From NCBI GenBank assembly GCA_965204535.1, contig CBDBEV010000001.1, positions 1,536,001 through 1,600,000 on the forward strand: DNA of 64,000 nt, in the 5' to 3' direction. This document shows, one piece after another, positions 38,091 to 58,731 of the stretch. The notes under the pieces were generated by a model. That model searched no databases. It was not told the origin of the DNA and saw only the letters and a list, made by a program, of their open reading frames with translations. Positions within the stretch are counted from its first letter, which is position 1. Each line of letters opens with the position of its first letter. The stretch is from a bacterium (GTDB taxonomy: Bacteria; UBA8248). Both the position numbers and the translations under genes were made by a program.

Positions 38091-38237
38091 GATGACGGAT
38101 GACGGATGACGGATGACGGATGACGGATGACGGATGACGGATGACGGATGACGGATGACGGATGACGGATGACGGATGACGGATGACGGATGACGGATGA
38201 CGGATGACGGATGACGGATGACGGATGACGGATGACG
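38091..38237. repeat. Simple sequence repeat (GATGACG)21
   Basis: 21 perfect heptamers ending about 20 bp upstream of the autotransporter ATG. Confidence 0.97.
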
Positions 38238-43360: not shown

Positions 43361-45016
43361 CTACTCCTCCTGCCGGTTCGCGCCGAACGCGCCGACCATG
43401 AGGCCATCATTCCCGTACGTCGAATGGAACACTCCGCCCACGACCTTCGGAACGCCGTCGTCGCCGTTGTCCATAAGATGACCGTTCCACCCGCCGTCGC
43501 CGGCGGCGGCCGTCCCGTCGATGGTCCACACCGTCTGCGCATACTCTGAACGGATGAAACTGATCGCTATGTCGCCTGTATTCGTGATGGAGGACTCCTT
43601 CAGCTCGACGGACCAGTTCCGCGCCCGGCCGTCCGCGCCCGTGAAGTCGTTTATGGCGCCCGAGATCATGTCGGTGTGGAAATCGGCCTCTAACGTCGCC
43701 GTCGCGGTGAAGCGGCCGGCGTCGTTCGTCCCCCCGGTGGGGCTCGAGAGAGCGTACAGGCCGGCGGCGCCGCCCCTGTACGTCGCCGTGCCGCGCAGGG
43801 CCGCGATGGTGGCCCCGGTGTCCGGGAGATCACGCTTCAGAAATAATGAGTACGCGGTATAGGTGTCGTCCGCGGACTTGTGGAGCCACCAGCCGTAGGA
43901 GGCATACTCCGTATCCGGCGAACTCATGACCCGGGCGTCCGGGTCCGCGGGCTTGAACGTCCAAACCGCATTGGCGGCGTCGAACGCGCCGGCGGCGGTG
44001 ACTCCGCCGAGATTGAAGCCCGGCCCGGCATGGCTGGCCGCGCACGTGCTTCCGTCAGCGGGATCGCAGCTGTACGTGCCCGGCACCCCGTGATAGCTGC
44101 CGGGGATCATCACGGCGACGTTGTTCTCGGGCAGCTTGAACCTCTTCAACCCCGCCGTATGGTCGAAGCTCGGGCTGGCAACCCGGCCGGCGGTGCCCTC
44201 GGTGGTCGTTTCGTCCAGCGTTCCGCCGGCGAAGCTGGCGCTGTACTGCGTCGAAAACTTCTCGCCCTCCTTCGGCTCCTCGACGTTCGAGTAGAAGACC
44301 GCCTCGTGTGTGCCACCACCTTCGGGCGCGGCCGTGTACCTCTTGCCTTCCCAGCCGTGGTTGGCGGCAACCATCGTCTGCTTGTCTTCCGACAGATAGT
44401 ATCTCGCAATTCCGAAATTCAGCGTTAAGCCGTCCGTTTCGAGGTCGGGATAGGTGCATCTTGGGTCAGATTCAAAGCAGGTTGATGGTGGAAGCAAAGG
44501 ATCATCGCCGAAGCCGTCGTACAGCTTCCTGGCGGTTTCGATCATGTCCGCCCTTGCCGCGTCGGCCGCCGCCTGCATCGCCGTCATGCGGGCCGTCCTG
44601 GCATTGTGGAAACGGGTCTCGAGCGCGGTGACGGTTCCGGTGTTCGCGGCCTTCTCCTCCGCCGGAACGCCGGCCGCCGCCGCTATCGCCGCCTTCGCCG
44701 CCGCGACCGCCGCCTCCGCGGCGCTCACCTCGGCGTCGGTGGAGTCGTCGTCCACCTCGCCTACCGCCGCCTGGGCGGCATCGAGCTTCATTTTGATGTC
44801 CGCGCGCTCCATGGCCAGGAGCTCCGCCGCCGTGACGCAAGCTCCGTCCATGTACCTGCCGCCACCGGCTTCACATGCCGCTTGCGGGTCCGGCATCTCG
44901 GCCGGCGTTTGCGCAGTGCCGCCGCCCCCGCCGCAGCCCGCCAGCGCAATCGTGAACGCCCCCGCCAGCGCGAAGGCGTAAAGCCTGTTTATCGGTTTCT
45001 CATATTTGAACGTCAT
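43361..45016 (-). CDS. TbpB-like surface lipoprotein (paralog A)
   Basis: AGGAGA RBS; lipobox LAGC-GGGGG; YGWWL, GTATY.GGAAG.YA, G.FTA.A.LEADF, terminal VGAFGA. Confidence 0.82.
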   Translation of the reverse strand: MTFKYEKPINRLYAFALAGAFTIALAGCGGGGGTAQTPAEMPDPQAACEAGGGRYMDGACVTAAELLAMERADIKMKLDAAQAAVGEVDDDSTDAEVSAAEAAVAAAKAAIAAAAGVPAEEKAANTGTVTALETRFHNARTARMTAMQAAADAARADMIETARKLYDGFGDDPLLPPSTCFESDPRCTYPDLETDGLTLNFGIARYYLSEDKQTMVAANHGWEGKRYTAAPEGGGTHEAVFYSNVEEPKEGEKFSTQYSASFAGGTLDETTTEGTAGRVASPSFDHTAGLKRFKLPENNVAVMIPGSYHGVPGTYSCDPADGSTCAASHAGPGFNLGGVTAAGAFDAANAVWTFKPADPDARVMSSPDTEYASYGWWLHKSADDTYTAYSLFLKRDLPDTGATIAALRGTATYRGGAAGLYALSSPTGGTNDAGRFTATATLEADFHTDMISGAINDFTGADGRARNWSVELKESSITNTGDIAISFIRSEYAQTVWTIDGTAAAGDGGWNGHLMDNGDDGVPKVVGGVFHSTYGNDGLMVGAFGANRQEE

Positions 45017-45384
45017 TAAGCGAGTCTCCTGAATACATGGAAAGGAACTTGACCTGGCCAATTCGATTGGAGAAGGGCCGACACCCCTCAAAGGGCTGCT
45101 TTAAGGGGGTTGAAAAACCCCTGAAGATGGGAATTGCTGCGACACGATCCCCGAGGTGCAGGCCGAGTCGGGGTGTCGGCTACGTTCATGAAACGCGAAG
45201 TGGGGGCCGCCCGTTGTTCCCCCTCCCGGCTCGAGGACTCAAACTCACAACCGGGAGCGGTACAGTTTGCTCTCACGAGGGAAGCAACCAACGGGCAACC
45301 CCCTTTTTCGCTCTCCTCATATCGCCTTGGGCCCCGCCGGGGCGGTGAAGCCCCGGAAGCCTGAAGGCGTCGTGCTCTTCGCTG

Positions 45385-47007
45385 CTACTGCTTGTTCACG
45401 CCGAAGGCGCCGACCATCCGGCCGGACGTGCTGTACGTCGAATGGAACGTGCCGGTCCCGACCTTCGCAACGCCGTCGTCGCCGTTGTCATAGAGAGCTC
45501 CGGACCACGCGCCGGCGGCGGCCGCGGCCGTCCCGTCGATCGTCCAGACCGTCTCGTTTCCGGCAGCGGCGGCAGTACCGTCACTACTGATTGCCCCGTC
45601 ATCGCCGACGGTGGACTTCTTCAACTCGACGGACCAGTTCCGCGACTGACCATCCGCGCCCATGAACTGGTCGATCGTGCCCGTGATCATGTCGGCATTG
45701 AAATCGGCTTCGAGCGTCGCCCGCGCGGTGAAGTGGCCGGCGTCGTTCGTTCCCCCGGTGGAACTGTAGAGAGCGTACTTGCCGGCGGCGCCGCCCATGT
45801 AGGTCGCCGTTCCACGCAGGGCCGTGATGCCGCTGGCGGGCGGGACGGTACCCCTGGCCGTCGCGAAAGCGCTCGCGGTGAAGGTCTCGCCGTCCTCGGA
45901 CTTGTGGATCCACCAGCCGTAGGAGACATACACCGTGTCCGCCACATCCGAGACCATGGCCGTCGGGCTGGTGGGCTTGAACGTCCAGGTCCCGCCGGCG
46001 AGGGTGAAGCCGCTTGTGGCTACGGTAGCGGAGCACGTGTTTCGATCAGCAGCAGCATCTGTAGGGGTGCAACTGTAAGTGCCGGACACCCCGTGATAGC
46101 TGCCAGGGATCATCACGGCGACGTTGTTCGCCGGCAAATCGAAGGTCTTGGTTCCTGCGGACTGGTCGAAGCTCGGGCTGGCAACGCGGCCCGTAACATA
46201 GCCAGTGAGGGCAGTGATATCCCCTGTTTCGCCGTCGGTGAGTGTGTACGCTTCATTGAACGGGTCGCCCTCCGTCGCGTCGCCGACGTTCGAGTAGACA
46301 TACGCCTCGTACGTGCCGGCATCGCCCGTGGGCTCGGCCGTGTGCCTCTTGCCCTCCCAGCCGTGGTTGGCGGCGACCGTCGTATCCTTGTCTACCGCCA
46401 GTGGGACGGTTGCGGCCGTGCCGATCGTCACGCTGATGACGCCGGCGGCGTCACTTGCGCCGGTTCGGACGTTGTCGGTATCGCCAAGGCCGTGCTCGAG
46501 GCCCTTGTATAGCTTACTGGCCGTCGCCATCATGGCCGCATCCGCGGCCTTCTGCTCATCGTCCATGGCGGCCATGCGGGCCATCTTGGCGGCGGCAAGC
46601 TGGGTTTCCAGCGCGGTGACCGTTCCGGTGTTCGCGGTTTTCTCTTCGTCCGGAATATTGGCCGCGGCCGCTATCGCCGCCTTCGCCGCCGCTATCGCCG
46701 CATCGGCCGCGCTCACCTCGGCGTCGGTGGAGTCGTCGTCAACCTCGTTGACCGCGGTGGTTGCCGCCATGATGGCCGTGCTGATGGCCGAGCGCTGCTC
46801 TGCCGCGAGATCCGCGGCCGAGGTGCAAGTGCCGTCCGCATTGTACCGACCCCCCTCATCCTCGCACGCCATTTGCGGGTCAGGCATATCGGTCGGCGTT
46901 TGCGTAGTGCTGCCGCCCCCGCCGCCGCAGCCGGCCAGCGCGACGGCGAACACGGCCGCCAGCGCGAAAGCGTAAAGCTTGTTTATCGGTTTCTCTTTGA
47001 ACATCAT
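45385..47007 (-). CDS. TbpB-like surface lipoprotein (paralog B)
   Basis: AGGAGGA RBS; lipobox LAGC-GGGGG; same barrel motifs; collinear with paralog A. Confidence 0.82.
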   Translation of the reverse strand: MMFKEKPINKLYAFALAAVFAVALAGCGGGGGSTTQTPTDMPDPQMACEDEGGRYNADGTCTSAADLAAEQRSAISTAIMAATTAVNEVDDDSTDAEVSAADAAIAAAKAAIAAAANIPDEEKTANTGTVTALETQLAAAKMARMAAMDDEQKAADAAMMATASKLYKGLEHGLGDTDNVRTGASDAAGVISVTIGTAATVPLAVDKDTTVAANHGWEGKRHTAEPTGDAGTYEAYVYSNVGDATEGDPFNEAYTLTDGETGDITALTGYVTGRVASPSFDQSAGTKTFDLPANNVAVMIPGSYHGVSGTYSCTPTDAAADRNTCSATVATSGFTLAGGTWTFKPTSPTAMVSDVADTVYVSYGWWIHKSEDGETFTASAFATARGTVPPASGITALRGTATYMGGAAGKYALYSSTGGTNDAGHFTARATLEADFNADMITGTIDQFMGADGQSRNWSVELKKSTVGDDGAISSDGTAAAAGNETVWTIDGTAAAAAGAWSGALYDNGDDGVAKVGTGTFHSTYSTSGRMVGAFGVNKQ

Positions 47008-47263
47008 TTAGTGAGTCCTCCTGAATACACAGTAGAAAAAGGGATTTTCCGTGAATTTCCGGCTTTCTCCGATTAACCTCCTTTCGTCAGCTTTTTTTCG
47101 GGCCTTCACAAACTGGTGATTCGTACTTTCGGCCGCCTGAAATACGGCGGACTTGAACCCTTTCATGATCCGGGCCGGTGGTTCGGCGAGACACATGTTC
47201 CTGCGGCATGCGCCCACCGTTCCCGGCCTCCAGAGGCGAGCCGCCTGCCACCCGGCCTGCCCG

Positions 47264-47451
47264 CCGATAATCGTTATTATCAGATGTGAGAAGCCCCGTT
47301 TTCCGCCGGGAGAGGCGTTTCGGGGCGCATCCGGGCCGTAAATGAGCGGGAAAAGACGCAAAACGGCGCCCGAAACCACTCCGGGGACCCCGGAATTGCG
47401 CTTGACATGGCCTTGAGAGGTGTTATATTTTCTGATAATAACGATTATCGG
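47264..47451. promoter_or_regulatory. Promoter-containing segment bounded by perfect 21-bp inverted repeats (candidate invertible switch 1)
   Basis: CCGATAATCGTTATTATCAGA (47264-47284) and TCTGATAATAACGATTATCGG (47431-47451); TTGACA 47402-47407 and TGnTATATT 47421-47429. Confidence 0.8.
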
Positions 47452-47529
47452 ATGTTAATTGTTGTAAAGATGTGGTAAAAAAACCGTTTCCGGCGGGCGA
47501 TTCTTCGTCGTCCGCCTTATATATGTTGC

Positions 47530-48564
47530 ATGGAATCGGGACGGCAACTCCACGAACGTGAATCGCCGCCGGAACTTCAGGGCGCCGGCCGAACGACAGA
47601 TCACGGAGAACCATGGGCGAAACCCGCGGCGCCGGGGAGACGCTCCCCCCTGGAAAAACCCGACGAGAGTCACTCACCGCACCTCGGTTCGTTCCGGGCG
47701 TCGGCTGATCTGGTGCGCGCCTCGATCGCCGGGAACACGCGCCGCGCCTACGAGGCGGCGCTGCGCGGTTTCGAGGAATCGGGGTGCCCCGAGACCGACG
47801 CCGGGGTGGCGGCCTACCTCACGGGGCTCTACGGGAAGGGCCGCTCGGCGGCCTGCGCCTCGATGGCGGTCGCGGCGCTTCGGTTCCGGGCGAGGCTGGG
47901 CGGCCGCTCCTCCCCGGTGGGTCCTTCGGCGCTGCGCGCCCTGGCGGGCTTCAGGCGTCTGGGTTCGGAGCGGGGCCGCGGCCCGGTGGACGGGGTGCGC
48001 TGGGAGGAGGCGGACCTCGCGGCGGCGCTGGCCGAGGGGACGGGGACCCTGGGGGGCCTGCGCGACGCGGCGGTCGTGGCAGTGGCGAGCGACGCCCTGC
48101 TCCGGGTGTCGGAGGTCGCGGCTCTGGACGTCGCCGACGTGAACCTCGGGGAGCAGACGGTGCGGATCCGCCGCTCGAAGACGGACCAGGAGGGTGTGGG
48201 CGTCGTACAGTACCTCGGAGAACCGACCGTGGCGCGCGTCGGGGCCTGGCTGGCGCGCGCGGGTATCGGGGAGGGAGCGCTCTTCCGGGGCCTGTACAAG
48301 GGGGGACGGCTTCGGCCCGGGCGCCTGACGGACAGGAGCATCCGGAGCATCATCGCGCGGTGGGGGAAGGCCGCGGGCGCCGAGGGGCGCGTGAGCGGCC
48401 ACAGCCTCCGGGTGGGGGGCGCGCAGAGCCTGGCCACGGCGGGGGCGTCGCTGGTCGAGATGCAACTCGCCGGGCGCTGGCAGTCGCCGGCCATGCCGGG
48501 ACGCTACGCGCAGGGACAGATCGCGAAACAGGGCGCCGTGGCGAGGCTGCGATACGGCCTGTGA
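47530..48564 (+). CDS. Tyrosine recombinase, Cre/TnpS-like (copy 1)
   Basis: NTRRAY N-domain; catalytic LLRVSE, RRSKTDQ, GHSLRVG, GRW, RY. Confidence 0.92.
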   Translation: MESGRQLHERESPPELQGAGRTTDHGEPWAKPAAPGRRSPLEKPDESHSPHLGSFRASADLVRASIAGNTRRAYEAALRGFEESGCPETDAGVAAYLTGLYGKGRSAACASMAVAALRFRARLGGRSSPVGPSALRALAGFRRLGSERGRGPVDGVRWEEADLAAALAEGTGTLGGLRDAAVVAVASDALLRVSEVAALDVADVNLGEQTVRIRRSKTDQEGVGVVQYLGEPTVARVGAWLARAGIGEGALFRGLYKGGRLRPGRLTDRSIRSIIARWGKAAGAEGRVSGHSLRVGGAQSLATAGASLVEMQLAGRWQSPAMPGRYAQGQIAKQGAVARLRYGL

Positions 48565-48593
48565 GGTCCGTCCGTTTTCTCCCGAATATCTCT

Positions 48594-49277
48594 CTACCGC
48601 CTCTTCCTCCTCCGGGCGGAGGCCCACTTCTCGAGGTCTTCGAGCAGGTAGCGCACCCGGTATCCGATGCGAAGAAAATCCGGCCCCTCTCCGCTCACGC
48701 GGTAGCGCTCCAGCGTCTTGGGCGAGAGGCCGAGCCAGGCGGCCGCCTCCCGCGTGTTCAGGTGGTTCTCCTTCGCGCGCTCATCGGCGTCTCCCGCGGC
48801 CCCGGGTTCCCCGGCGGCGTCCCACGTCCCGTCGAACGGGTCGGGCAAGTCCGCGAGCCTCTCGCGTATGGCGCGGATCTCCTCTCCCGTCGCGTTGGCC
48901 GCCATCCAGGCGCGCACCCGGTCGAAGGTCTTGAGATACGGCGAGGCGCCCCGGCGCAGCCTCCCCACGAAGGAGGGATTCCCCACGGTCTCCTCGCCCA
49001 GGATCGAGACCTTGGTCCCGCTCACCACGAGAAACGCCTCCACCTCGGCCCGCAGGAGCGGTCCCAGCGGCGGATACCCCATGAACGCGAGCACCCGGTC
49101 CGCCGTGTCGACCCGCAGGGGCCGCCCCCGGGCCTGCAGGCCCACGAAGCCGGGAACCCCCAGCGCGCCCACCCCGAAGCGCCTCGCGCTCATCCCTCGG
49201 CGCGCGCGCCAGAGCGCAATGCTCCGGCGCAGCCGCTCGTCCAGCGGGGCGCCGGTATCGTCTTTAAACGCGGTCAT
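48594..49277 (-). CDS. DNA-binding protein with two Cro-like repeats and a C-terminal AlpA/excisionase-like HTH
   Basis: Repeated FG..A.G.P.FV..L..G.......DRV.A.M units; LNTREAAAWLGLSPKTLERYRV.GEGP.F..IG.RVRY. Confidence 0.75.
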   Translation of the reverse strand: MTAFKDDTGAPLDERLRRSIALWRARRGMSARRFGVGALGVPGFVGLQARGRPLRVDTADRVLAFMGYPPLGPLLRAEVEAFLVVSGTKVSILGEETVGNPSFVGRLRRGASPYLKTFDRVRAWMAANATGEEIRAIRERLADLPDPFDGTWDAAGEPGAAGDADERAKENHLNTREAAAWLGLSPKTLERYRVSGEGPDFLRIGYRVRYLLEDLEKWASARRRKRR

Positions 49278-49477
49278 GGCGCGCGAACATAAGGAAAGGA
49301 CGAGCGCCCGTTCAATCGTTGTTTCTAGCGCGGAAGGTACACCCGGGAAGAGTCCGCGCCTGCGTTCGTGCGCGGACCGCTCATCGGTTCAGCCTGAAAT
49401 CACGGGCGTTTTCCAGAAAACGAAGGTCGCCGGAGAACGTGCAGCGGGGCGCTACGGAAAAAAAGGAACAATGTCGC

Positions 49478-49610
49478 TCACACCGCGGCGCCCTGTTTCA
49501 CGAGTCGCCCCTGCGCATGACCGGCGATTGGCGGCGCCCGGCGAGTTGCATCCCGACCGGAGAAGCCCCTGCCGCGGCAAGGCGCTGCGCGCTGCCCGTC
49601 CGCAGGTCGA
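49478..49610 (-). pseudogene. Degenerate third copy of the recombinase 3' end, inverted
   Basis: Minus strand GCGCAGCGCCTTGCCGCGGCAGGGGC...GATGCAACTCGCCGGGCGC...GAAACAGGGCGCCG matches 48421-48540. Confidence 0.7.
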
Positions 49611-49812
49611 AACGGCGCCGATTCCCTTGTTTCATTCGTTTTTATCGGATCGTATGCTGATGTTCCGGGTCGTCCGCCAAATACAATACGGCCAAGCCGA
49701 AACTGGCGGACATTCCTTCGTGGATTGTATGCCAACGGCCCGGATTTTCCCGGTCCTGTCTGATTGACCGTTTTGCCTTACACGTCTTTCGATGATTGGT
49801 CGGGCATGGTGG

Positions 49813-50865
49813 TCACGCCGGTATTGCCGTCAGATCGGACAATTCGCCTTTCTCGAAGGTTTTGGGAGCCCACCCCGGCAAGAAGGGCGTATCCATGCGG
49901 TCGAGTTGCAAGGCGTCGCGCATCCCCTGGGGGATGCTGTCAAGCCATTCGGGTATACCCGGCAGGGGCGATGAATCGGGGTCGTAGTAGAGACCGCCCA
50001 TTTCGGGCATTCCGGTGTCAGGCCAATGGCCCTCGTCGCGCTTGAGCAGTTGCACCGGCCAGGGTTCCCTGCGGGTTTCCACCAGGAATATCTCGTCCGG
50101 CGCATTTGTGCACGCTGAGAGCAGCGAAGGGAGAAGATCTTCGCGGAATTCGAAGCTCGTAAGGCCCGGATCACCGCTTTCCAAAACCAGAACGGTACGT
50201 GCGCCATCCGCCTTGCAGGCCTGAAGCTTGGGGCATTTCCTGGAAAAGGCATCCCGGAGACTGTCCAAGCGCGGGCCTTCCATATCGTCCGGAGGAATGA
50301 ATCTGAACGAGAGTGAGCCTGGCTTTTTTTGCACGAACCGTGCAATCGGCCATTGCAGCAGTTCGAATTCACAGTCAAATCCCGGCGGGGTTCCATGAAT
50401 ACGATCATCGGACCAATAAGGATTGCGGATTGATAAGATTTGGCCGGAGCTCCGCTCGCGCAGGGATTTCTCGCTCGCGCGGATCCATTCGACGAGATCA
50501 CCAAGTGCCCGTTCTCTTTTTTTGACTCGGCCTTTGGGCAGGGAAACGTCAATCGGAAATTGCAGTTCGTAGTAGGCCGGGCTTGAGAATGGATCCGGGA
50601 TAGCTTTTCTGATGTGCTCGATGATTTGGTTCGCGACGACCACGATCGATGTCTGATTTTCGATCGACTCGATCCAAGTGTGCTCAATCACATATTCCCG
50701 GGAGCCGAGCTTCAGACGCAGATCGACAGGAGGACCGCCTCTCTCCTTGCCCGGATGGCGGACATCCGAGCGCGTCTCGCGTGTCCATTTTTCGAGGATC
50801 CTGACGACCGCGTCACACACCCTGCCCTCGTTGTTCGGCACGATCATGGCCGACGAATCCCTCAT
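49813..50865 (-). CDS. Hypothetical protein with possible PD-(D/E)XK-like motif
   Basis: 350-aa ORF with protein-like composition; PPVD...IEHT motif. Confidence 0.5.
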   Translation of the reverse strand: MRDSSAMIVPNNEGRVCDAVVRILEKWTRETRSDVRHPGKERGGPPVDLRLKLGSREYVIEHTWIESIENQTSIVVVANQIIEHIRKAIPDPFSSPAYYELQFPIDVSLPKGRVKKRERALGDLVEWIRASEKSLRERSSGQILSIRNPYWSDDRIHGTPPGFDCEFELLQWPIARFVQKKPGSLSFRFIPPDDMEGPRLDSLRDAFSRKCPKLQACKADGARTVLVLESGDPGLTSFEFREDLLPSLLSACTNAPDEIFLVETRREPWPVQLLKRDEGHWPDTGMPEMGGLYYDPDSSPLPGIPEWLDSIPQGMRDALQLDRMDTPFLPGWAPKTFEKGELSDLTAIPA

Positions 50866-51574
50866 TTTCCCTGATTTACCCGTTCCCGCTCACGGGCCAT
50901 ATATTCTATCATGCCGCGTTTGTCTGCATCGACTCGCCAAGTGCGGTTATATGCCGGTCACCGCATCTCTATGTCCAATGCGGGTGTCCATGTACGTCCA
51001 CATACGGTCATCGATACGGGATCGGGAAAACGGTACTCGAACGGAAAACTTTCAAGCTCGCGTAATCGATTCGGACCGGTCCTTGCATCTCCATACGGGC
51101 CTGCGGCCAGGAAAATGTTTGCCGACACGGATTCGCCGGAGTGCGCGGCAGTTTTAATCAATCCGCTTTCATTTTGATTACGGGCCAACCAGGGAAGATT
51201 CATGGCAACCTGTTAACTAATTTTATTACAGCACCTTACAGGATAATCGAAAATGCCCGAAACTGCTCTTGTCTCTAAGACGATCGTAATACCGATGGAA
51301 GACGGACAGGCTCTTGTTGCCTTTTCCTTCCGTCGAGAGCCTTCACGTGGTGCTGTCGCCATCTCTCCTGCCCGTGCTTGATGCACAGCACCATGCCCTG
51401 TTCGATCGTGAAGTTTCCAAATCCTATGCCACTCGCGGGTATCGCGCACGATCCCGTGCCCTTTTCTTTCGGGCGTCGCGCCCCTCGCACGCGGCGGCGC
51501 GGGCAGGTAAGACATGACATAGGCGCAAAGCGCGAGAATCAGGTGAATAATGCGAACGAAACGAGCCCGCATCA

Positions 51575-53905
51575 TCATTTCCTGCGGTCGAGAGCCATCA
51601 GCAGAGGCGGAAGAAGGAGAAAGTCGGTGAGGAGTCCGAAGATGATCGTGATCGAGACCATGAGGCCGAGCGTCCAACTGCCCTCGTAACCCGATAAGGT
51701 GAACACCAGGAAGCCCGCCGACAGAACCACGGTCGTTGTCCAGAGCGCATTTCCAACGGTCTGGAAAGTGGCGCGCACGGCCTCGGGCGCGGAAAGCCCC
51801 TCGCGGCGGCTTTTCAGGTATTTGCTCAAAAAGTGAATCGTGTCGTCCACGATGATTCCGAAAGCGATGACGGTCATCACGGAGCCGGCAAGACTCACGT
51901 GGCTTACCAGATAACCCCACAGGCCGAAGGTCATGGCGGCGGGGATGAAGTTGGGCACGAGGCTGATGAGGCCCAGGCGCACGTTTTTGAAAACCAGGAT
52001 CAGAATCAATGAAATCAGGGTCATGCCGATGAACGTTCCGCGCAGCATGCTTTCCATGTTTCGTTGCGTGAGATGAGCGAAAATCATGCTTAAACCCGAT
52101 GCTTCGGCCGCGAATTCGGGTATGTTGGCGCGCAGCCAGGCCTGCGCACGCATATCGAGATTACGCAAGCCTCGAGCCGAGACCCCCTGGACCGTTACGG
52201 TCATTCGTGTTGCGGATTTCGCGACGTCGATGCGGTCGTTGAGGTCGGCGCCGAACGGAAGGGAAAACTCGTAAAGCAGCAGATATTGCGCGGCGAGCCT
52301 GGGGTTCTCAGGCAAACGATGGAAAGCCGGATCGTCACCGTGCATGTTCTTGTTCAGGCGCTTCATGATATTCGTGAAGGCCCGGACGTGGGTGACTTCG
52401 GGCTGTTTTCGGTACCAATCGGCGAAGGCCTCGACTTTTTTCAAGTATTCAGGGTCGGTAATGCCGCCCTCGCGCCCCGCTTTCAGCGAGTATTCCAGCG
52501 AATTGAGACCGGTCAGGTTCTTGATGACGAAATCCGTGTCGCGCCGGAACCGGTATCGCTCATCGAACTGTTTCGTCCAATCCTCGCTCAGTTCGTTTCG
52601 GGGGATGCCGGTGAGCAAAGCAATCGTCAAAATGGAGACGAACGAGAGCAGAAACGCGCGGCGTTCGACGACGAATGCGCCGAAGCGATCGAAAAAGCCG
52701 GACCCCTCATTGCGGCGGCGAGGCGCGCGCAGAGGCAGGATCGAGAGCAACGCAGGCAGAAGCGTCATGGAGTAGAAGAAGACGCACAAAACCCCGAACG
52801 CCACCAGATTGCCCAGTTCCTGAAAGGGCGGTGAATCCGAGGTGTTCAGGCTCAAGAACCCGATTGCGGTCGTTAGCGAGGTGAGAAAAACCGGCCAGAT
52901 GTTGCTGCGAAGCGATTCCATAATCGCCGCGTTCCTGTCCAGACCTTTTCGCATGGCCAGAAGAGTGGCCGAGACGATGTGGATCGAATGGGCAACGGCG
53001 ATCACCATGACGATGATCGGGAGGCCGGCGGTGATGGGGCTGAACACCAGGCCTGCCCACCCGGTGAATCCCATGGTGGTGTTGATGGAGAATATGATCA
53101 CGAAAACGATGGCCAGGGTGCCGAGTACGGAGCGAAGCAGAAGGGCCGTACCGATTATGACGACGAAAAATGCGATGGGCCCGATGTTCTCCATGGTACC
53201 CGCGGTAGCATCGGCGACGGTGCGGTTCAAGACGATGTTGCCGGTCAGGTAGTATTCAAAGTCGGGACGACTCGTGCGGGCCTTGCCCAGAAGGGCGTTC
53301 AGATAATCGGTTATCTCAACTGCCACATGTTCTTTTTTTTCGGGCAAGACGAATGTGATCGCCAACCCACTCACGCGCCCGTCCCGGGAGATCAGACGCC
53401 CGACGAGGTCTGCGGAGTTCAGCGCAGTCTTCCTGATTCTCGCGAGGTCGGCGTCACCGAGCGCGCTCGCGTCATCGACGAGCGGCTCGACGATCAAGTC
53501 ATCTCCCTCCGCCCAACTGTGGTTATAGTTCGTGAGAGAGTCGACCCGGCTCGAATGAGGCGTCTTCCAGGCGGCTTCGGTCAACTCCTCCATGGCGCCG
53601 AGCGCCCTGCGGGTGAACACCGAGCCCTCCCGGGGCGCAATGGCGATGAGCGCGGTATCGGACTTGGAATAGGTATTCTGCAAGGTATCGAAAGCGGCGA
53701 GTTGGGGATTGTCTTCGCCCAACAAAATACGATAATCATCCGAGACGGTGATGTAGCGCGCTCCCGCCGTCATAAGCGCCATGAGCAGAGAAACCAACCC
53801 GACGACCAGCCAACGGCGGCGCAGAACAAGGTCTGAATAGTGATCCACCTGCAAGAGATTCATCGCCTCAGTGAGAAAGGCCGGGGATCGCTCCGCGTTG
53901 TACAA
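51575..53905 (-). CDS. MMPL/RND-family membrane transporter
   Basis: Two repeats of TM plus large loop plus 5 TM; TSLTTAIGFLSL, FGIIVDDTIHFL. Confidence 0.9.
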   Translation of the reverse strand: MYNAERSPAFLTEAMNLLQVDHYSDLVLRRRWLVVGLVSLLMALMTAGARYITVSDDYRILLGEDNPQLAAFDTLQNTYSKSDTALIAIAPREGSVFTRRALGAMEELTEAAWKTPHSSRVDSLTNYNHSWAEGDDLIVEPLVDDASALGDADLARIRKTALNSADLVGRLISRDGRVSGLAITFVLPEKKEHVAVEITDYLNALLGKARTSRPDFEYYLTGNIVLNRTVADATAGTMENIGPIAFFVVIIGTALLLRSVLGTLAIVFVIIFSINTTMGFTGWAGLVFSPITAGLPIIVMVIAVAHSIHIVSATLLAMRKGLDRNAAIMESLRSNIWPVFLTSLTTAIGFLSLNTSDSPPFQELGNLVAFGVLCVFFYSMTLLPALLSILPLRAPRRRNEGSGFFDRFGAFVVERRAFLLSFVSILTIALLTGIPRNELSEDWTKQFDERYRFRRDTDFVIKNLTGLNSLEYSLKAGREGGITDPEYLKKVEAFADWYRKQPEVTHVRAFTNIMKRLNKNMHGDDPAFHRLPENPRLAAQYLLLYEFSLPFGADLNDRIDVAKSATRMTVTVQGVSARGLRNLDMRAQAWLRANIPEFAAEASGLSMIFAHLTQRNMESMLRGTFIGMTLISLILILVFKNVRLGLISLVPNFIPAAMTFGLWGYLVSHVSLAGSVMTVIAFGIIVDDTIHFLSKYLKSRREGLSAPEAVRATFQTVGNALWTTTVVLSAGFLVFTLSGYEGSWTLGLMVSITIIFGLLTDFLLLPPLLMALDRRK

Positions 53906-53967
53906 CTCAAGCGCAAAGCAGTTGATTCACCTGGTGTATGCAATTCAAATCACGTCACAGGGATCGT

Positions 53968-55149
53968 TCACCATGGACTGGATTGCGAAGCGCGAACGTG
54001 ATCGGGCATCCTGTAGCTGATGCCTCCCCTGTCGTATTGCGCGGCGTCGAAAATCTGGGAGAACGCGTTTTGCCGGAAGAGCGCATTGCCACTCAGCATC
54101 TCGAAAAGGCGTTCCCTGAACCGGTAATAGCCCAGCACCAGGGTTCTGCTCCTCAGGGTTTTCGGATACTGGTAGGTGTCGGCGAGTTCGTTGCCTATGA
54201 GCGCTCGCGAGAGGCGGTAGGCGTACTTTTCCAGAGATTTGATTTGGGCTTCATCCGTCAGGCCCGACATTATCAGAATGGCCTTGAATACCGTATTCGC
54301 CACGGCCAGACAATCGGAGTCAGGCGGCGGTTCGCACATGGAAGCGACCTCGCGAAGGTCTCTGGCCTCTTGCTCGCTGGTGAACAGTATGGTTTCGGGA
54401 ACTCCAAGTAGATAGCCGGCGTAGCGCCAGATACTGACGATGCTCTCCTTTTCCTCCTGCGTGAGCCTGCCGCCCAGCGAAATCGCGTGTTCGAACTGGC
54501 GAATCGAGAAGGTGTACAGGGAAACCCCGCCTATGTGGGCCGCGCTCAGCGGCAACCCCCAGGCTTCGTGATCCCACTCGTCGGAATTCTTCAGCAGATG
54601 CCTGATCCGGGCATGGACGAAGCGGATGCGCATGGATATCTTCCATCCGTCGCCCTCTCTGCCCAGGCCGCCGGGAAAATATATCTCGACCATGTGGCGG
54701 TTGTTTTGCCGGAGGCGTCTGATGGCGCCGTCATCCAGTCCGGTCACGCGTCCGGTGATGAAGAAGGATTTGGCGACGAGCGTCCCGAAGCCTTCCACCG
54801 CGCTGCCGACGGCGTATGCGATGAGCATGTTGGTCATGTTTCTGTAGAAGGCGCGCATGCCCGGCCCGAAGGCCTCGAAGTCGACCCAGGGGGGCACGTC
54901 GGGATCGACTTTCTCGAAGAAATCGCGCAGGACTTTCGGCGCATCGCGCAGAACACCTTCATGCTGTTCTATGCCGGCCTCGATGAACGCGTGCAGATCA
55001 TAGGAAGGTAAAGAGGCAAGCTCCTCCATGACCGGGTCCAGGTCGGCATCGCCTATGGTGGTGTGCCGGATGTAGTTGTCCGCCGCCGCCTCATCGTGGA
55101 GGCGGGCTTCGGCGTAACCTTCGGTATACGCTGATGGACACTTCTCCAT
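53968..55149 (-). CDS. MpaB/Lcp-like (DUF2236) oxygenase-family protein
   Basis: GD...D.V, P.WVD, TGR......RRL, RIRFVHARIR, W....WG.P, WRYAGYLLGVPE. Confidence 0.82.
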   Translation of the reverse strand: MEKCPSAYTEGYAEARLHDEAAADNYIRHTTIGDADLDPVMEELASLPSYDLHAFIEAGIEQHEGVLRDAPKVLRDFFEKVDPDVPPWVDFEAFGPGMRAFYRNMTNMLIAYAVGSAVEGFGTLVAKSFFITGRVTGLDDGAIRRLRQNNRHMVEIYFPGGLGREGDGWKISMRIRFVHARIRHLLKNSDEWDHEAWGLPLSAAHIGGVSLYTFSIRQFEHAISLGGRLTQEEKESIVSIWRYAGYLLGVPETILFTSEQEARDLREVASMCEPPPDSDCLAVANTVFKAILIMSGLTDEAQIKSLEKYAYRLSRALIGNELADTYQYPKTLRSRTLVLGYYRFRERLFEMLSGNALFRQNAFSQIFDAAQYDRGGISYRMPDHVRASQSSPW

Positions 55150-55178
55150 ATCAGTATCCTCGCAATAGTTTCCGGCGG

Positions 55179-55484
55179 CTAAACCTCCGGTTGACCCACA
55201 GGAGCGTCCGCGGAACTCTCTTCAACCTTCATGCCGGCTGAAGACACTCCATGGTCAGGACCTGGCCGCCTGTCATCGTTTCTAGGGCCGCCGGAACATG
55301 CCGTTCTCTCGATGGCGGGAAACCGAATCCGCTTGTTTGCCAATTCGGGGTTACCCGCAAACCCTCTGGCCTCCTCTTTCATGTGCCTGATCGCCTTATC
55401 CAGCAAGTTCAAATGTTGAACCCGCCGCCGGCACCTCCATGCCACGATGACGGCCACAACCAGGAGTACGGCGATGTAAGTCAT
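55179..55484 (-). CDS. Small hypothetical protein with N-terminal hydrophobic helix
   Basis: AAGGA RBS; YIAVLLVVAVIVAW; first gene of the leftward run. Confidence 0.5.
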   Translation of the reverse strand: MTYIAVLLVVAVIVAWRCRRRVQHLNLLDKAIRHMKEEARGFAGNPELANKRIRFPAIERTACSGGPRNDDRRPGPDHGVSSAGMKVEESSADAPVGQPEV

Positions 55485-55540
55485 GACTTGTTTCCTTGGT
55501 CCGTCTCCAAAGGCGAGCCGCCTCGCATCCGGCCTGCCCG

Positions 55541-55739
55541 CCGCTAATTGTTATTATCGGATGTGAGAAGCCCCGTTCTCCGCCGGGAGAAGCGTTTCGG
55601 GGCGCATATGGGCCGTAAATGAGCGAAACATGAGCGAAAAAAGACGCAAAACGGCGCCCGAAACCCCTCCGGGGACCCCGGAATCGCGCTTGACATGGCC
55701 TTGAGAGGTGTTATGTTTTCCGATAATAACAATTAGCGG
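55541..55739. promoter_or_regulatory. Promoter-containing segment bounded by perfect 21-bp inverted repeats (candidate invertible switch 2)
   Basis: CCGCTAATTGTTATTATCGGA (55541-55561) and TCCGATAATAACAATTAGCGG (55719-55739); TTGACA 55690-55695 and TGnTATGTT 55709-55717; interior homologous to switch 1. Confidence 0.8.
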
Positions 55740-55752
55740 ATTCCAAAAACCC

Positions 55753-55791
55753 GCCGTTTCGCCGGTATTCCCCTGCGAAACGGCTTTTTTT
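55753..55791 (+). terminator. Intrinsic terminator just right of switch 2
   Basis: GCCGTTTCGC-(12 nt)-GCGAAACGGC followed by T7. Confidence 0.75.
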
Positions 55792-55855
55792 ATTGGAAAT
55801 TCCCCGCCGTCGTCTATACTCGGCAATCGACGAGGCCCTGGAGCGGCCTCAGGGA

Positions 55856-56836
55856 ATGGAAACGGCCGCCGACCCGGAAGGTTGGCTTCTCGCCATGACG
55901 ACTGGGGCAACACCGCCCGACCCGGAACAGGACATCGCTTTGACGAGAAGGCCGGCCCGACCGGCCCGTGCGGCCGCCGACCTGGCGAAGGCGTCGATGT
56001 CTAAGAACACGCGGCGAGTGTACGAGACGGCCCTGCGGAGGTTCGAGCGCTCGGGAAACCCCGAGACCGACGCCGGGATAGCGGCGTACCTGGGGGATCT
56101 CTACGAACAGGGGCACTCGGCGGCCGTGGCCGCGATGGCGGTCGCGGCGCTTCGCTTCCGGGCGAAGCTGAACGGCCGGCCCTCCCCGGCGGGGGCGGCC
56201 TCGGAGCGGGTGCTGGCCGGCTTCAGGCGCCTGGCCGCAGAGCGCGGCCGCGGCCAGGTGGTGGGGGTGCGCTGGGAGCAGGCGGACCGCGCGGCGGCGC
56301 TGGCCGAGGGGACGGGGACCCTGGGGGGCCTGCGCGACGCGGCGATCGTGGCGGTGGCGAGCGACGCCCTGCTCCGGGTGTCGGAGGTCGAGGCGCTCGA
56401 CATCGAGGACGTGGACCTGAAGGAGCAGACGGTGCTGATCCGCCGCTCGAAGACGGACCAGGAGGGTGTGGGCGTCGTGCAGTACCTCGGAGAACCGACC
56501 GTGGCGCGCGTCGGGGCCTGGCTGGCGCGCGCGAGTATCGAGGAGGGAGCGCTCTTCCGGGGCCTGTACAAGGGGGGACGGCTTCGGCCCGGGCGCCTGA
56601 CGGACAGGAGCATCCGGAGCATCATCGCGCGGTGGGGGAAGGCCGCGGGCGCCGAGGGGCGCGTGAGCGGCCACAGCCTCCGGGTGGGGGGCGCGCAGAG
56701 CCTGGCCTCGGCGGGGGCGTCGCTGGTCGAGATGCAACTCGCCGGGCGCTGGCAGTCGCCGGCCATGCCGGGACGCTACGCGCAGGGACAGATCGCGAAA
56801 CAGGGCGCCGTGGCGAGGCTGCGATACGGCCTGTGA
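55856..56836 (+). CDS. Tyrosine recombinase, Cre/TnpS-like (copy 2)
   Basis: Same catalytic motifs; C-terminal half nearly identical to copy 1; start uncertain (ATG 55856 chosen). Confidence 0.92.
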   Translation: METAADPEGWLLAMTTGATPPDPEQDIALTRRPARPARAAADLAKASMSKNTRRVYETALRRFERSGNPETDAGIAAYLGDLYEQGHSAAVAAMAVAALRFRAKLNGRPSPAGAASERVLAGFRRLAAERGRGQVVGVRWEQADRAAALAEGTGTLGGLRDAAIVAVASDALLRVSEVEALDIEDVDLKEQTVLIRRSKTDQEGVGVVQYLGEPTVARVGAWLARASIEEGALFRGLYKGGRLRPGRLTDRSIRSIIARWGKAAGAEGRVSGHSLRVGGAQSLASAGASLVEMQLAGRWQSPAMPGRYAQGQIAKQGAVARLRYGL

Positions 56837-56859
56837 GATCCGTCCGGGATGAGCCCGGC

Positions 56860-57025
56860 CTCATCGAGACTTTCGTCGAGACCCCGCGCTGCACCGGCCC
56901 CGTCTGGAGGGCATCGGGATGGGCCCGCGTCGGCGCCACACAGGAACAGACGCTACGACAAGCCTGGAAAGGACGTCTGGCTGAGGCCGCTCCGCAGCAA
57001 CCGGAAGCAGGTCCTCAACCGCTGA
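56860..57025 (+). pseudogene. DUF4338 3' remnant
   Basis: LIETFVETPRCTG..WRASGW..VG.T and DKPGKDVWLRPL...KQVLNR; homologous to 42712-42900 in the opposite orientation. Confidence 0.75.
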
Positions 57026-57058
57026 AACAACTCCCATCACCCTGCCGCCGAATCGTTA

Positions 57059-57873
57059 TTGCGCCAGGCTAAGCCCTGGAGAGGAGGATGCCATGACCTG
57101 GAACCTCTTATAGCGACTCAGCGGGTTCGACCCCCGTCCGGCAAAGGCGAAGCCGTCCAGCCAAAAGCGAGTCTTGCATGGCGTGCGGCAACGCGCGTCG
57201 TGAAGCGTCGACAGCAGGTGACGAAGCGGCGGGATAAGCCTCGAAATCGGCCAATCGATGACGCCTTCATTGTTAAGCAGGTGGGGGCAGCACCGGAAGC
57301 GCCGCTATCGGCGAGGCGCAACGGGTCGTCCGGGGTCGTGGGCCGGCGCAAAGTCACGGGATGGGTCGCCAGGGAACCTGGGAGATCCTGCTCCTGCCCG
57401 TGGGCAAGGATGCTGGAAAGGGGATGCCGGCATGCAAATCCAGGCCCCGGCCCGTCGCCGGGCCTGTACGGCGGCGGGAGCGCTATATGGCGGACACGAA
57501 CCCGGCAGGCGTCCGCGGAGCCGACCGGCGAAAACAATAAGCCGAAGGACATGCAAGGGCAGGAAGTCGTAGCGCCCTGATAGTACCGCTGAAGGCGGGG
57601 AACCGTGGCCATCGGGACCCGCCGGAGGGAAGCGGGGCGTCATCTGTACAGAGCCACTGATGGGAAACGTTGGAGGAAACCCTGAGTTCCACGAACACGT
57701 ACACGAAACAGCAGTGGATAGCCGAACAGGCGAGGGAGCGGTCATTCCTCGACCTGCGGATTAAGGGCGCAAAGCTCCTTGAGCGAACCTGTCAGGTGAG
57801 GAACCGAGTGCGTCAATCGCGCACGCTCGGGTCTGTGGGGGGCGGGGCGCAGCAATGCCCCCGCCTACCCGGC
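57059..57873 (+). mobile_element. Group II intron lacking most of its RT ORF
   Basis: 5' TTGCG; ATAGTACCGCTGAAG...GGAGGGAAG motif; domain V GAACCGAGTGCG-TCAATC-GCGCACGCTCGGGTC (57801-57833); domain VI hairpin with bulged A; stub TKQQWIAEQAR. Confidence 0.82.
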
Positions 57874-58731
57874 CCCGGTCTGTAAACGTTTATCCAAGCC
57901 GTGACGGATTAGGTCTCAGAGCCAAACAGAGACGAATTGACGGTGACCTCTACGAGAAGAAAGTCGATGTCGGAATGCCATCCATGCACCGAAATTGCCC
58001 GAACATCCTGCGGCCTTGGGTGGTACCGAAGAATTAGGCCGGGCCAGCTACGTTTAGACAGCCACCGAATTACCGCTATTTAGGTGCTGTCATCACGGCC
58101 CGGATGAACGGATACCGGTCTTCGACGACTCGCGCCCCCTGGGATGCTCCGGGGTTGTAATGAGTCCGCTTGCGTTTTGATTACATTTATTTCAATGAAT
58201 TTATAACCAGATTAAAAACAATAATTTAATTTTTATATTCTGGATAATTCGAGAAAATCCCATAAAATTCGATAAATTTACGGGGTATTTCTAAAAATTG
58301 TTTTCCCGAATACTCTCCCCGCGCGGGCGCACTTACTCCCGCGATCGGGATGATTCGGAGTATAAGGGGTTTCCGGCGAAAGCCGCGACGGCAAATGCGG
58401 GGAACTGCAGGGGTGAAGTCGCGCCCGGGCGTTCGCGTATTCCACAATATCCAGTCGCTCAAATAGATATTCCACACAATATATGGGCCGTTCTTGCCGC
58501 GAAGACGCCAGAACCCGCTCTGAAAGTCAATTCCATAAAAACAACTCATTAAATATCAATGGTTTATAAAAATTATTACAAGAAGCGCTTTAAGGACATT
58601 TGCGGGGCTTTAATTTTTTAATTCTCATAAAACAAATAAATACAATATGATGCAGTTGTTAATGAAAAAATTACTTGAAATAAATTCGCGGCCCTTGCTA
58701 TATTCCCCAATGTTCCAATCCGTCCCGTTGG

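Follow-up and report, generated by a model that had tools for sequence, protein, structure and literature searches.

Promoter segments that invert between inverted repeats are known from several bacteria. The fimS element of Escherichia coli, acted on by FimB and FimE, and the related switches of uropathogenic E. coli combine a short promoter segment, inverted repeats and an adjoining tyrosine recombinase gene, and are described as placing a surface protein under ON/OFF control (PMC11868660, PMC6083910). In Bacteroides fragilis, many promoters of surface structures are inverted within one genome by trans-acting invertases (Mpi, Tsr0667 and Tsr19), 13 inverted regions being reported for Mpi (PMC4747536), and the tyrosine recombinase RecV of Clostridioides difficile is described as a single enzyme inverting several dispersed elements (Cdi1-7) that govern surface traits (PMC5903667). 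Enzymes of the Cre type (Cre/loxP, Dre, Vika, Nigri, Panto and the YR series) are presented in another role, the resolution of replicon dimers (PMC8138268); their site, described as lying directly before the gene, is a dyad whose core is asymmetric, with arms of 13-15 base pairs (bp) around an 8-bp spacer in loxP-type sites (PMC10250229). The TnpS/TnpT-rst system of Tn4651 likewise places inverted repeats and promoters directly upstream of a tyrosine recombinase, and a divergent helper gene, tnpT, is described across the site, the whole belonging to a transposon of the Tn3 family (PMC7157771). Here we analyze a 64,000-nucleotide stretch of an uncultured bacterium of the lineage UBA8248 (contig CBDBEV010000001.1 of assembly GCA_965204535.1, positions 1,536,001 to 1,600,000; hereafter the window), which holds two modules that each join a candidate invertible promoter to a gene for a Cre-type recombinase.

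Our reading, to which we assign a probability of roughly 0.86, is that each module is an ON/OFF switch whose promoter would be flipped by the Cre-type recombinase at 6-bp cores, and that the genome holding the window carries 17 such segments. This arrangement differs from each of the described systems. Mpi is a serine recombinase and a single master enzyme, whereas here a Cre-type enzyme is encoded in eight full copies inside a portable cassette, and the segments are near-identical paralogues, each of which has dyad sites with a 6-bp core of its own. The RecV elements, for their part, depend on one master gene and differ in their inverted repeats; they are not paralogous cassettes with a Cre-type gene. 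Compared with FimB and FimE, the enzyme falls far below the family cut-off, has a full Cre-like N-terminal domain and belongs to a multi-copy switch. It shares the catalytic R, K, H, R, W and Y with Cre-type enzymes, which match it best over almost its whole length, but the loxP-type layout is not found: the site is a strict 7-6-7 dyad with weak conservation further out, and two sites stand inverted around a promoter. Unlike in Tn4651 rst, there is no adjacent transposase, the divergent gene is cargo and the intervening DNA occurs in both orientations. We found no account of this switch system in the literature searched, which covered few subscription papers; the term Nitrospinota is absent from one DeepInverton supplement, and the large DeepInverton prediction tables might list these loci.

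Perfect 21-bp inverted repeats bound module 1 (47264-47284 and 47431-47451, with 146 bp between them) and module 2 (55541-55561 and 55719-55739, with 157 bp between them), and every site in both is itself a dyad of a 7-bp arm, a 6-bp asymmetric core and a second 7-bp arm. In module 1, the cargo-side site occupies 47264..47283 on the plus strand (arm 47264-47270, core TCGTTA 47271-47276, arm 47277-47283, the core limits being those of within-pair identity) and the recombinase-side site 47432..47451 on the minus strand (core 47439-47444, the same TCGTTA), enclosing a putative invertible segment at 47284..47431. The corresponding features of module 2 are the cargo-side site at 55541..55560 (plus strand, core TTGTTA 55548-55553), the segment at 55561..55719 and the recombinase-side site at 55720..55739 (minus strand, core 55727-55732, again TTGTTA). 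The cores are read here from flank into segment and are the reverse complements of the spacers reported in a first-pass annotation, made from the sequence alone. Consensus matching predicts a plus-strand promoter in each segment: a sigma70-type one at 47402..47429 (TTGACA-16-TATATT, with a TG-extended -10) and one at 55690..55717 (TTGACA-16-TATGTT, extended -10 TG). Both, together with a second spacing of the first, are the best-scoring promoter-like matches in 44900-57200, a region with five such matches against 2.4 +/- 1.7 in shuffles and with none of the five on its minus strand. In 58 of the 63 switches where a -35 was found, it sits 30 bp before the right, promoter-proximal site, so that bound enzyme would overlap the start site.

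The recombinase genes follow on the plus strand, at 47530..48564 (344 amino acids, aa) and 55793..56836 (326 aa if translated from the ATG at 55856), both with intact catalytic motifs. The first-pass annotation had described twin modules, each with dyad sites in inverted repeats, a promoter-like match and a recombinase, and both the coordinates and the PF00589 matches agree with that description. "Twin" nevertheless understates the case, since the genome has 17 copies, and only these two have the perfect 21-bp repeat; in the other copies the arms are unlike between the two ends and the core alone is identical. While the module structure thus stands, that annotation had missed the copy number, the copies without a recombinase, the concerted change of the cores and the nature of the cargo.

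A BLAST search with the segment retrieved 17 near-identical copies of 188-200 bp from the genome holding the window (G000, with contigs C1 and C2), eight accompanied by a full recombinase gene, two by a remnant and seven by none; the last seven retain both sites and matched cores, one of them at a locus common to four other genomes. A spacer-blind two-site pattern found 16 copies in G000 and, across the class, 52 switches in 11 of 51 genomes, none of them outside the genus, while the reversed control pattern found none in either search. The segment is present in 11 of the 22 other genomes of the genus, with a weak match in one genome of another family, and a complete two-site switch also stands upstream of a homologue in a record titled Dehalococcoidia (L046); the records of related loci bear titles such as Nitrospinota bacterium. 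From G000 and its relatives (among them G002, G005, G010, G013, G014 and G032) we compiled 64 unique switches, leaving aside 16 duplicates and four loci that failed the arm-score or distance filter: L099, at a contig end; L040 and L108, which are one locus; and L043, whose cores match. In the L040/L108 locus, in G032, the centre of the site has 7 bases, the same ones at either end, and the secreted cargo behind it is a different one; site spacing may be variable.

Taking the cargo leader and the recombinase as fixed landmarks, we called a switch OFF when its promoter points toward the recombinase and ON, or flipped, when it points toward the cargo. By this measure both window modules are OFF, and seven of the 64 unique switches are flipped, distributed over four genomes: two of the 17 in G000 (C2:567376 and C2:2391268), three of the 16 in G002, and one each in G014 and G005. 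In the flipped copies the inner-arm variants have moved along with the segment, while those of the outer arms remain beside their flanks, so the crossover falls at the core. At one orthologous locus the switch is OFF in G000 (C2:2207125) and ON in G002 (L080), within a region of G002 (2664000-2683999) that is collinear with C2 2198130-2218435 of G000, the flanks to either side matching at 93-97%. The flipped copies do not appear to form one lineage, as they are scattered over a poorly resolved tree of the segment (six changes for seven rows, against a shuffled mean of 6.8). The first-pass annotation had suggested looking in other genomes for the segment in flipped orientation next to homologues; the seven flipped copies, with their junctions at the sites, and the orthologous OFF/ON locus answer that suggestion, and the occurrence of both orientations with a crossover at the core lends its inversion reading strong comparative support. 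The marks by which an inverton can be recognized in sequence, namely a promoter-like segment between inverted repeats, both orientations (here among copies and relatives) and junctions at the repeats, are all found.

The 6-bp core is identical at the two ends of all 16 complete pairs in G000 (the maximum in 200,000 permutations was 9), of 63 of the 64 unique switches and of 51 of the 52 matches to the spacer-blind pattern, although 13 different cores occur among the 17 G000 copies and 26 in the unique set. Over the six core positions, within-pair identity is 0.98-1.0 against 0.36-0.82 across pairs, whereas the variable arm positions show no within-pair excess (for example, 0.09 vs 0.11 and 0.48 vs 0.47); the arms comprise 7 conserved bp and a more weakly conserved T 13 bp from the core. 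None of the 26 cores is palindromic. Five G000 loci have orthologues with another core, which once more is shared by the two ends of the switch. Among the G000 copies the core diverges by 0.37, compared with 0.107 for the segment, where only one of 143 six-column windows is as variable, and with 0.19 at fourfold-degenerate sites of the recombinase. Cores that stay matched at 63 of 64 switches though divergent between loci call for continued exchange, and they are what strand exchange between the two sites of one switch would be expected to leave behind. Efficient exchange by Cre is described as requiring matching spacers, with transitions the best tolerated mismatches and mismatched products reverting to one parent sequence (PMC11260471, PMC10850332). 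Single-step differences among the 26 cores comprise 28 transitions and 12 transversions.

Under the proposed mechanism, the recombinase would bind four arms, exchange strands across the two cores and flip the 188-200-bp predicted promoter segment, so that the divergent cargo gene is ON when the promoter faces it and OFF when it does not. It would also act in trans on copies without an enzyme of their own, because nine of the 17 copies have no adjoining full recombinase, and three of the five flipped copies in G000 and G002 are among such copies. Inversion through a mismatched core would leave a heteroduplex, one allele per strand at both ends, and replication would then fix or erase the core change at both ends together; such resolution would make the cores change in concert within a switch and drift apart between loci. 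Differing cores would lower ectopic recombination between copies, probably as a by-product. Of the 136 G000 pairs, 100 differ at >= 2 core positions, and selection for distinct cores was not detected either in G000 (4 identical-core pairs against 6.7 expected, P 0.15) or in G002 (14 against 17.1, P 0.16), where two cores are present four times each. As most switches are OFF in both genomes, only a small and shifting part of the surface-protein repertoire would be on display in any one cell. In the window, two surface lipoproteins would be under the control of module 1, and module 2 would have been grafted onto an oxygenase-like/MMPL operon.

The two window recombinases, encoded by open reading frames with PF00589 matches, are 85% identical over 280 aa. 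Their alignment to Cre covers residues 75-322, with the GRW motif present and with R, K, H-x-x-R, W and Y aligned, including the tryptophan characteristic of Cre; the catalytic motifs are intact in all eight full copies of G000. The closest solved relatives in the PDB are Cre variants (E 3e-12 with a single sequence and 1e-19 with a family profile), Xer proteins reaching 4e-10 or weaker. The models of the FimB/FimE type, NF007370 and NF007371, scored 13-24 bits against cut-offs of 221-222, and no NCBIfam family exceeded its cut-off for these recombinases, the Xer families also remaining far below. The assignment of the enzyme to the Cre type, made in the first pass from the GRW motif, is thereby borne out. 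Close homologues form 678 clusters. Among the distant ones, those in records titled Binatia, Terriglobia and Longimicrobiales (L045, L054, L056, L058 and L066) have one site just upstream of the gene, under its own promoter. In another, from a record titled Pseudomonadales (L069, 3759-4925), the recombinase gene lies between two matched sites in inverted orientation, an arrangement resembling that of hin. These layouts suggest that the invertase may have been recruited from a resolvase, and the switch itself would have arisen by inverted duplication of the single promoter-overlapping site. Plasmid relatives are all below 60% identity. A 23-kb record (L057, L059 and L060) repeats a 9.6-kb unit about 2.4 times with a homologous recombinase in each, and is likely a plasmid multimer; in a record titled Dehalococcoidia (L072, 3400-3760) an array resembling clustered regularly interspaced short palindromic repeats lies upstream of a recombinase remnant.

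At 16 of the 17 G000 loci the product of the divergent gene is predicted to be a surface or secreted protein, mostly a lipoprotein with a predicted TbpB/fHbp fold. Fourteen loci have such a lipoprotein (one broken near its start), one an RTX-repeat protein with the same C-terminal domain as the lipoproteins, and one a 1,250-aa Calx-beta/cadherin-like protein. The lipoprotein signal was recognized by inspection. A model of the C-terminal domain built from 12 paralogues reached a predicted local distance difference test (pLDDT) value of 74, against only 47 for single-sequence folding, and matches NHBA, TbpB, fHbp and PmSLP with template modelling (TM) values of 0.3-0.56; an Atlas match to TbpB_B_D clusters (score 0.85) is taken as a lead only, and the Pfam TbpB model found no match among the cargo. 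A Slam-family gene (PF04575) is present in G000. The switched lipoproteins are predicted to be surface proteins, and may be of the Slam-dependent kind, whose marks are a lipoprotein signal, a TbpB-type barrel at the C-terminus and a Slam gene in the genome. At module 1, a conserved leader on the minus strand (47008..47263) connects the switch to the lipoprotein start; of its 15 genome matches, 14 adjoin a switch (13 with a listed site, plus the copy at the C1 junction described below) and one does not. Beyond it, also on the minus strand, lie cargo 1a (45385..47007), a predicted surface lipoprotein of 540 aa with a lipobox-like AGC then glycines, a C-terminal beta domain like that of NHBA, TbpB and fHbp, and no Pfam match, and its tandem paralogue cargo 1b (43361..45016, 551 aa), which is likely either co-transcribed with 1a or separately promoted. 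Module 2 is the exception among the 17: its minus-strand cargo (51575..55484) comprises a 101-aa open reading frame, an MpaB/Lcp-like oxygenase (53968-55149) and an MMPL transporter (51575-53905). No switch lies upstream of the oxygenase's closest orthologues, found in G013 (89%) and G010 (75%), and the cassette can therefore be grafted onto other genes. Tracts of the heptamer CATCCGT, 10-20 units long, stand just before the ribosome-binding region of autotransporter-like genes (38095-38235 in the window, or C2:1574234, and C1:218003, C2:17100 and C2:31230), and likely represent a second, slipped-strand form of phase variation.

Several observations weigh against promoter inversion as an active switch in these cells. 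All genomes are assemblies of uncultured populations, that of G000 with 5.3% contamination, and the ON/OFF contrast is one between loci and species, not within a clone. With 57 of the 64 switches OFF, flipping may be rare or slow. The window modules were compared with three sequencing runs (X1, X2 and X3) as assembled contigs, and no flipped junction of either was found in these. The contigs of all three runs bridge the right junction of module 1 and the left junction of module 2 in OFF orientation, both with 0 differences. For module 1 no opposite-strand joint is among the contig joints listed, and its exact left junction allele is not among the contigs listed, which makes that side uninformative; module 2 gave one opposite-strand joint among those listed (55599/55723, in X3; 14 more were not displayed), which by its coordinates would fit a flipped paralogue better than module 2 itself. 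The promoters were assigned by consensus match alone, and two further features, a hairpin resembling a terminator (47492-47516) and a weak second match to a promoter (55793-55820), complicate the picture of what is transcribed in the OFF state. The fold matches of the cargo are modest, and its sequence profile has no match in the PDB. Finally, one G002 switch (L078) has mismatched cores, differing by a single transition, as expected of an intermediate. The OFF-only contigs, together with the recombinase remnant that is all that remains at eight of the 33 switches in G000 and G002, would also suit switches that once flipped and are now largely frozen, with the window modules fixed OFF and orientation differing over evolutionary time only. 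Assembled contigs, however, drop rare variants, eight full recombinase copies are intact, and matched cores at 63 switches, despite a divergence well above that of segment and fourfold-degenerate sites, are hard to reconcile with such an arrest, which we hold to be very improbable. Misassembly at a short inverted repeat is a scarcely credible source of the flipped copies, even though every genome here is metagenome-assembled and C1 both starts and ends inside one core: the seven flipped copies come from four independent assemblies, six of the copies lying on megabase contigs or in near-complete assemblies, their arms differ, the repeat is exact over only 12-16 bp in the G000 cases, and the matched cores would be left unexplained.

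The type of enzyme itself raises another explanation, namely that the sites serve resolution or integration of a mobile cassette, as in Cre/loxP or TnpS/rst, and that promoter inversion is an occasional side reaction with no regulatory value. The distant homologues with one site under their own promoter would fit this, as would the fast turnover of the cassette, an adjoining set of F-type tra genes at one copy and an excisionase-like gene after many of the recombinases. The two sites of a switch are inverted, however, and not direct; they do not lie at the ends of the cassette, and the cargo is outside them; and the seven G000 copies without a recombinase keep both sites and matched cores, one even at a locus shared with four genomes. 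The cargo, moreover, is a predicted surface or secreted protein at nearly every locus. The TnpS/rst variant of this explanation, which the first-pass annotation had named as its alternative, finds no divergent TnpT-like helper gene at the position that rst requires, a cargo gene standing there, left of the site, instead; at the 17 loci the divergent gene is always a lipoprotein, a secreted protein or the oxygenase operon, as judged without a TnpT profile search. We therefore consider mobile-cassette sites an improbable explanation and retain the invertible-promoter switch. A broader proposal would have a Cre-type resolvase turned genome-wide invertase, with about 17 portable switches read by one enzyme family, insulated by selected distinct cores and providing a combinatorial host-facing display in a marine symbiont; taken as a whole, we regard it as tentative and rather doubtful. 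The host bacterium may live as a sponge symbiont; sponge, coral or marine metagenome runs contained 5-13% of the words, a figure not used here as evidence of habitat, and two exact-pattern scans of metagenome contigs gave no match.

The cassette turns over fast: of the 16 switches in G002, only four lie where G000 also has a switch. We looked for transfer RNA (tRNA) genes, of which the window has none, and for a junction motif, and found no route of cassette spread in these. A dispersed AT-rich motif (58262-58292 in the window and 33 other places in G000) coincides with several cassette insertion junctions of G002, but it lies within 4 kb of only three of the 17 G000 switches (random 6%). One copy spans the end and start of contig C1 (1593653/1), which breaks inside its core; C2:2944394 shares the core of this C1-end switch and a nearly identical cargo start. 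Either the assembly broke here at a switch that was heterogeneous, or the arrangement arose by recombination. At C2:561247 (L119), a lone site with a leader remnant has the core of module 1 and lies at the distal end of two lipoprotein genes in tandem, where similarity to the switch ends exactly at the site. In the same locus, F-type conjugation genes (TraL, TraE, TrbI-like and TraC; L119 10328-16519, or C2:570327-576521) come directly after the flipped C2:567376 module.

Elsewhere in the window, a gene convergent with recombinase 1 (48594..49277, minus strand) encodes a C-terminal HTH_17 domain, excisionase-like although its Xis match is under the cut-off; genes of this type come after many of the recombinases. 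An inverted remnant of the recombinase 3' end lies at 49483..49606 (minus strand). Downstream of module 2, a non-coding stretch (57035-57875) is repeated in related genomes, and may be a group II intron remnant. At the other end of the window, 8874-33306 holds genes of a defence island, coding for a TPR/PIN protein, a TIR-STAND NTPase, HipA, a type I restriction-modification system and a SIR2-domain protein.

The matched-core pattern provides a marker of past recombination that can be read from sequence alone and could find switches in genomes for which no reads exist. The 26 natural cores, which resemble engineered orthogonal lox variants, sit on one compact site and are ready material for testing the orthogonality of spacers, as well as a candidate recombinase tool with a short site. 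The findings also point to a Cre-type enzyme that serves as a regulatory invertase in nature, and states that plausibly preceded this role can still be seen in the single site under the gene's own promoter and in the sites flanking the gene itself. For the bacterium, they name the surface proteins that its cells likely vary, and would add an uncultured marine lineage to the bacteria with multi-locus phase variation by invertible promoters, so far mainly gut inhabitants and pathogens.

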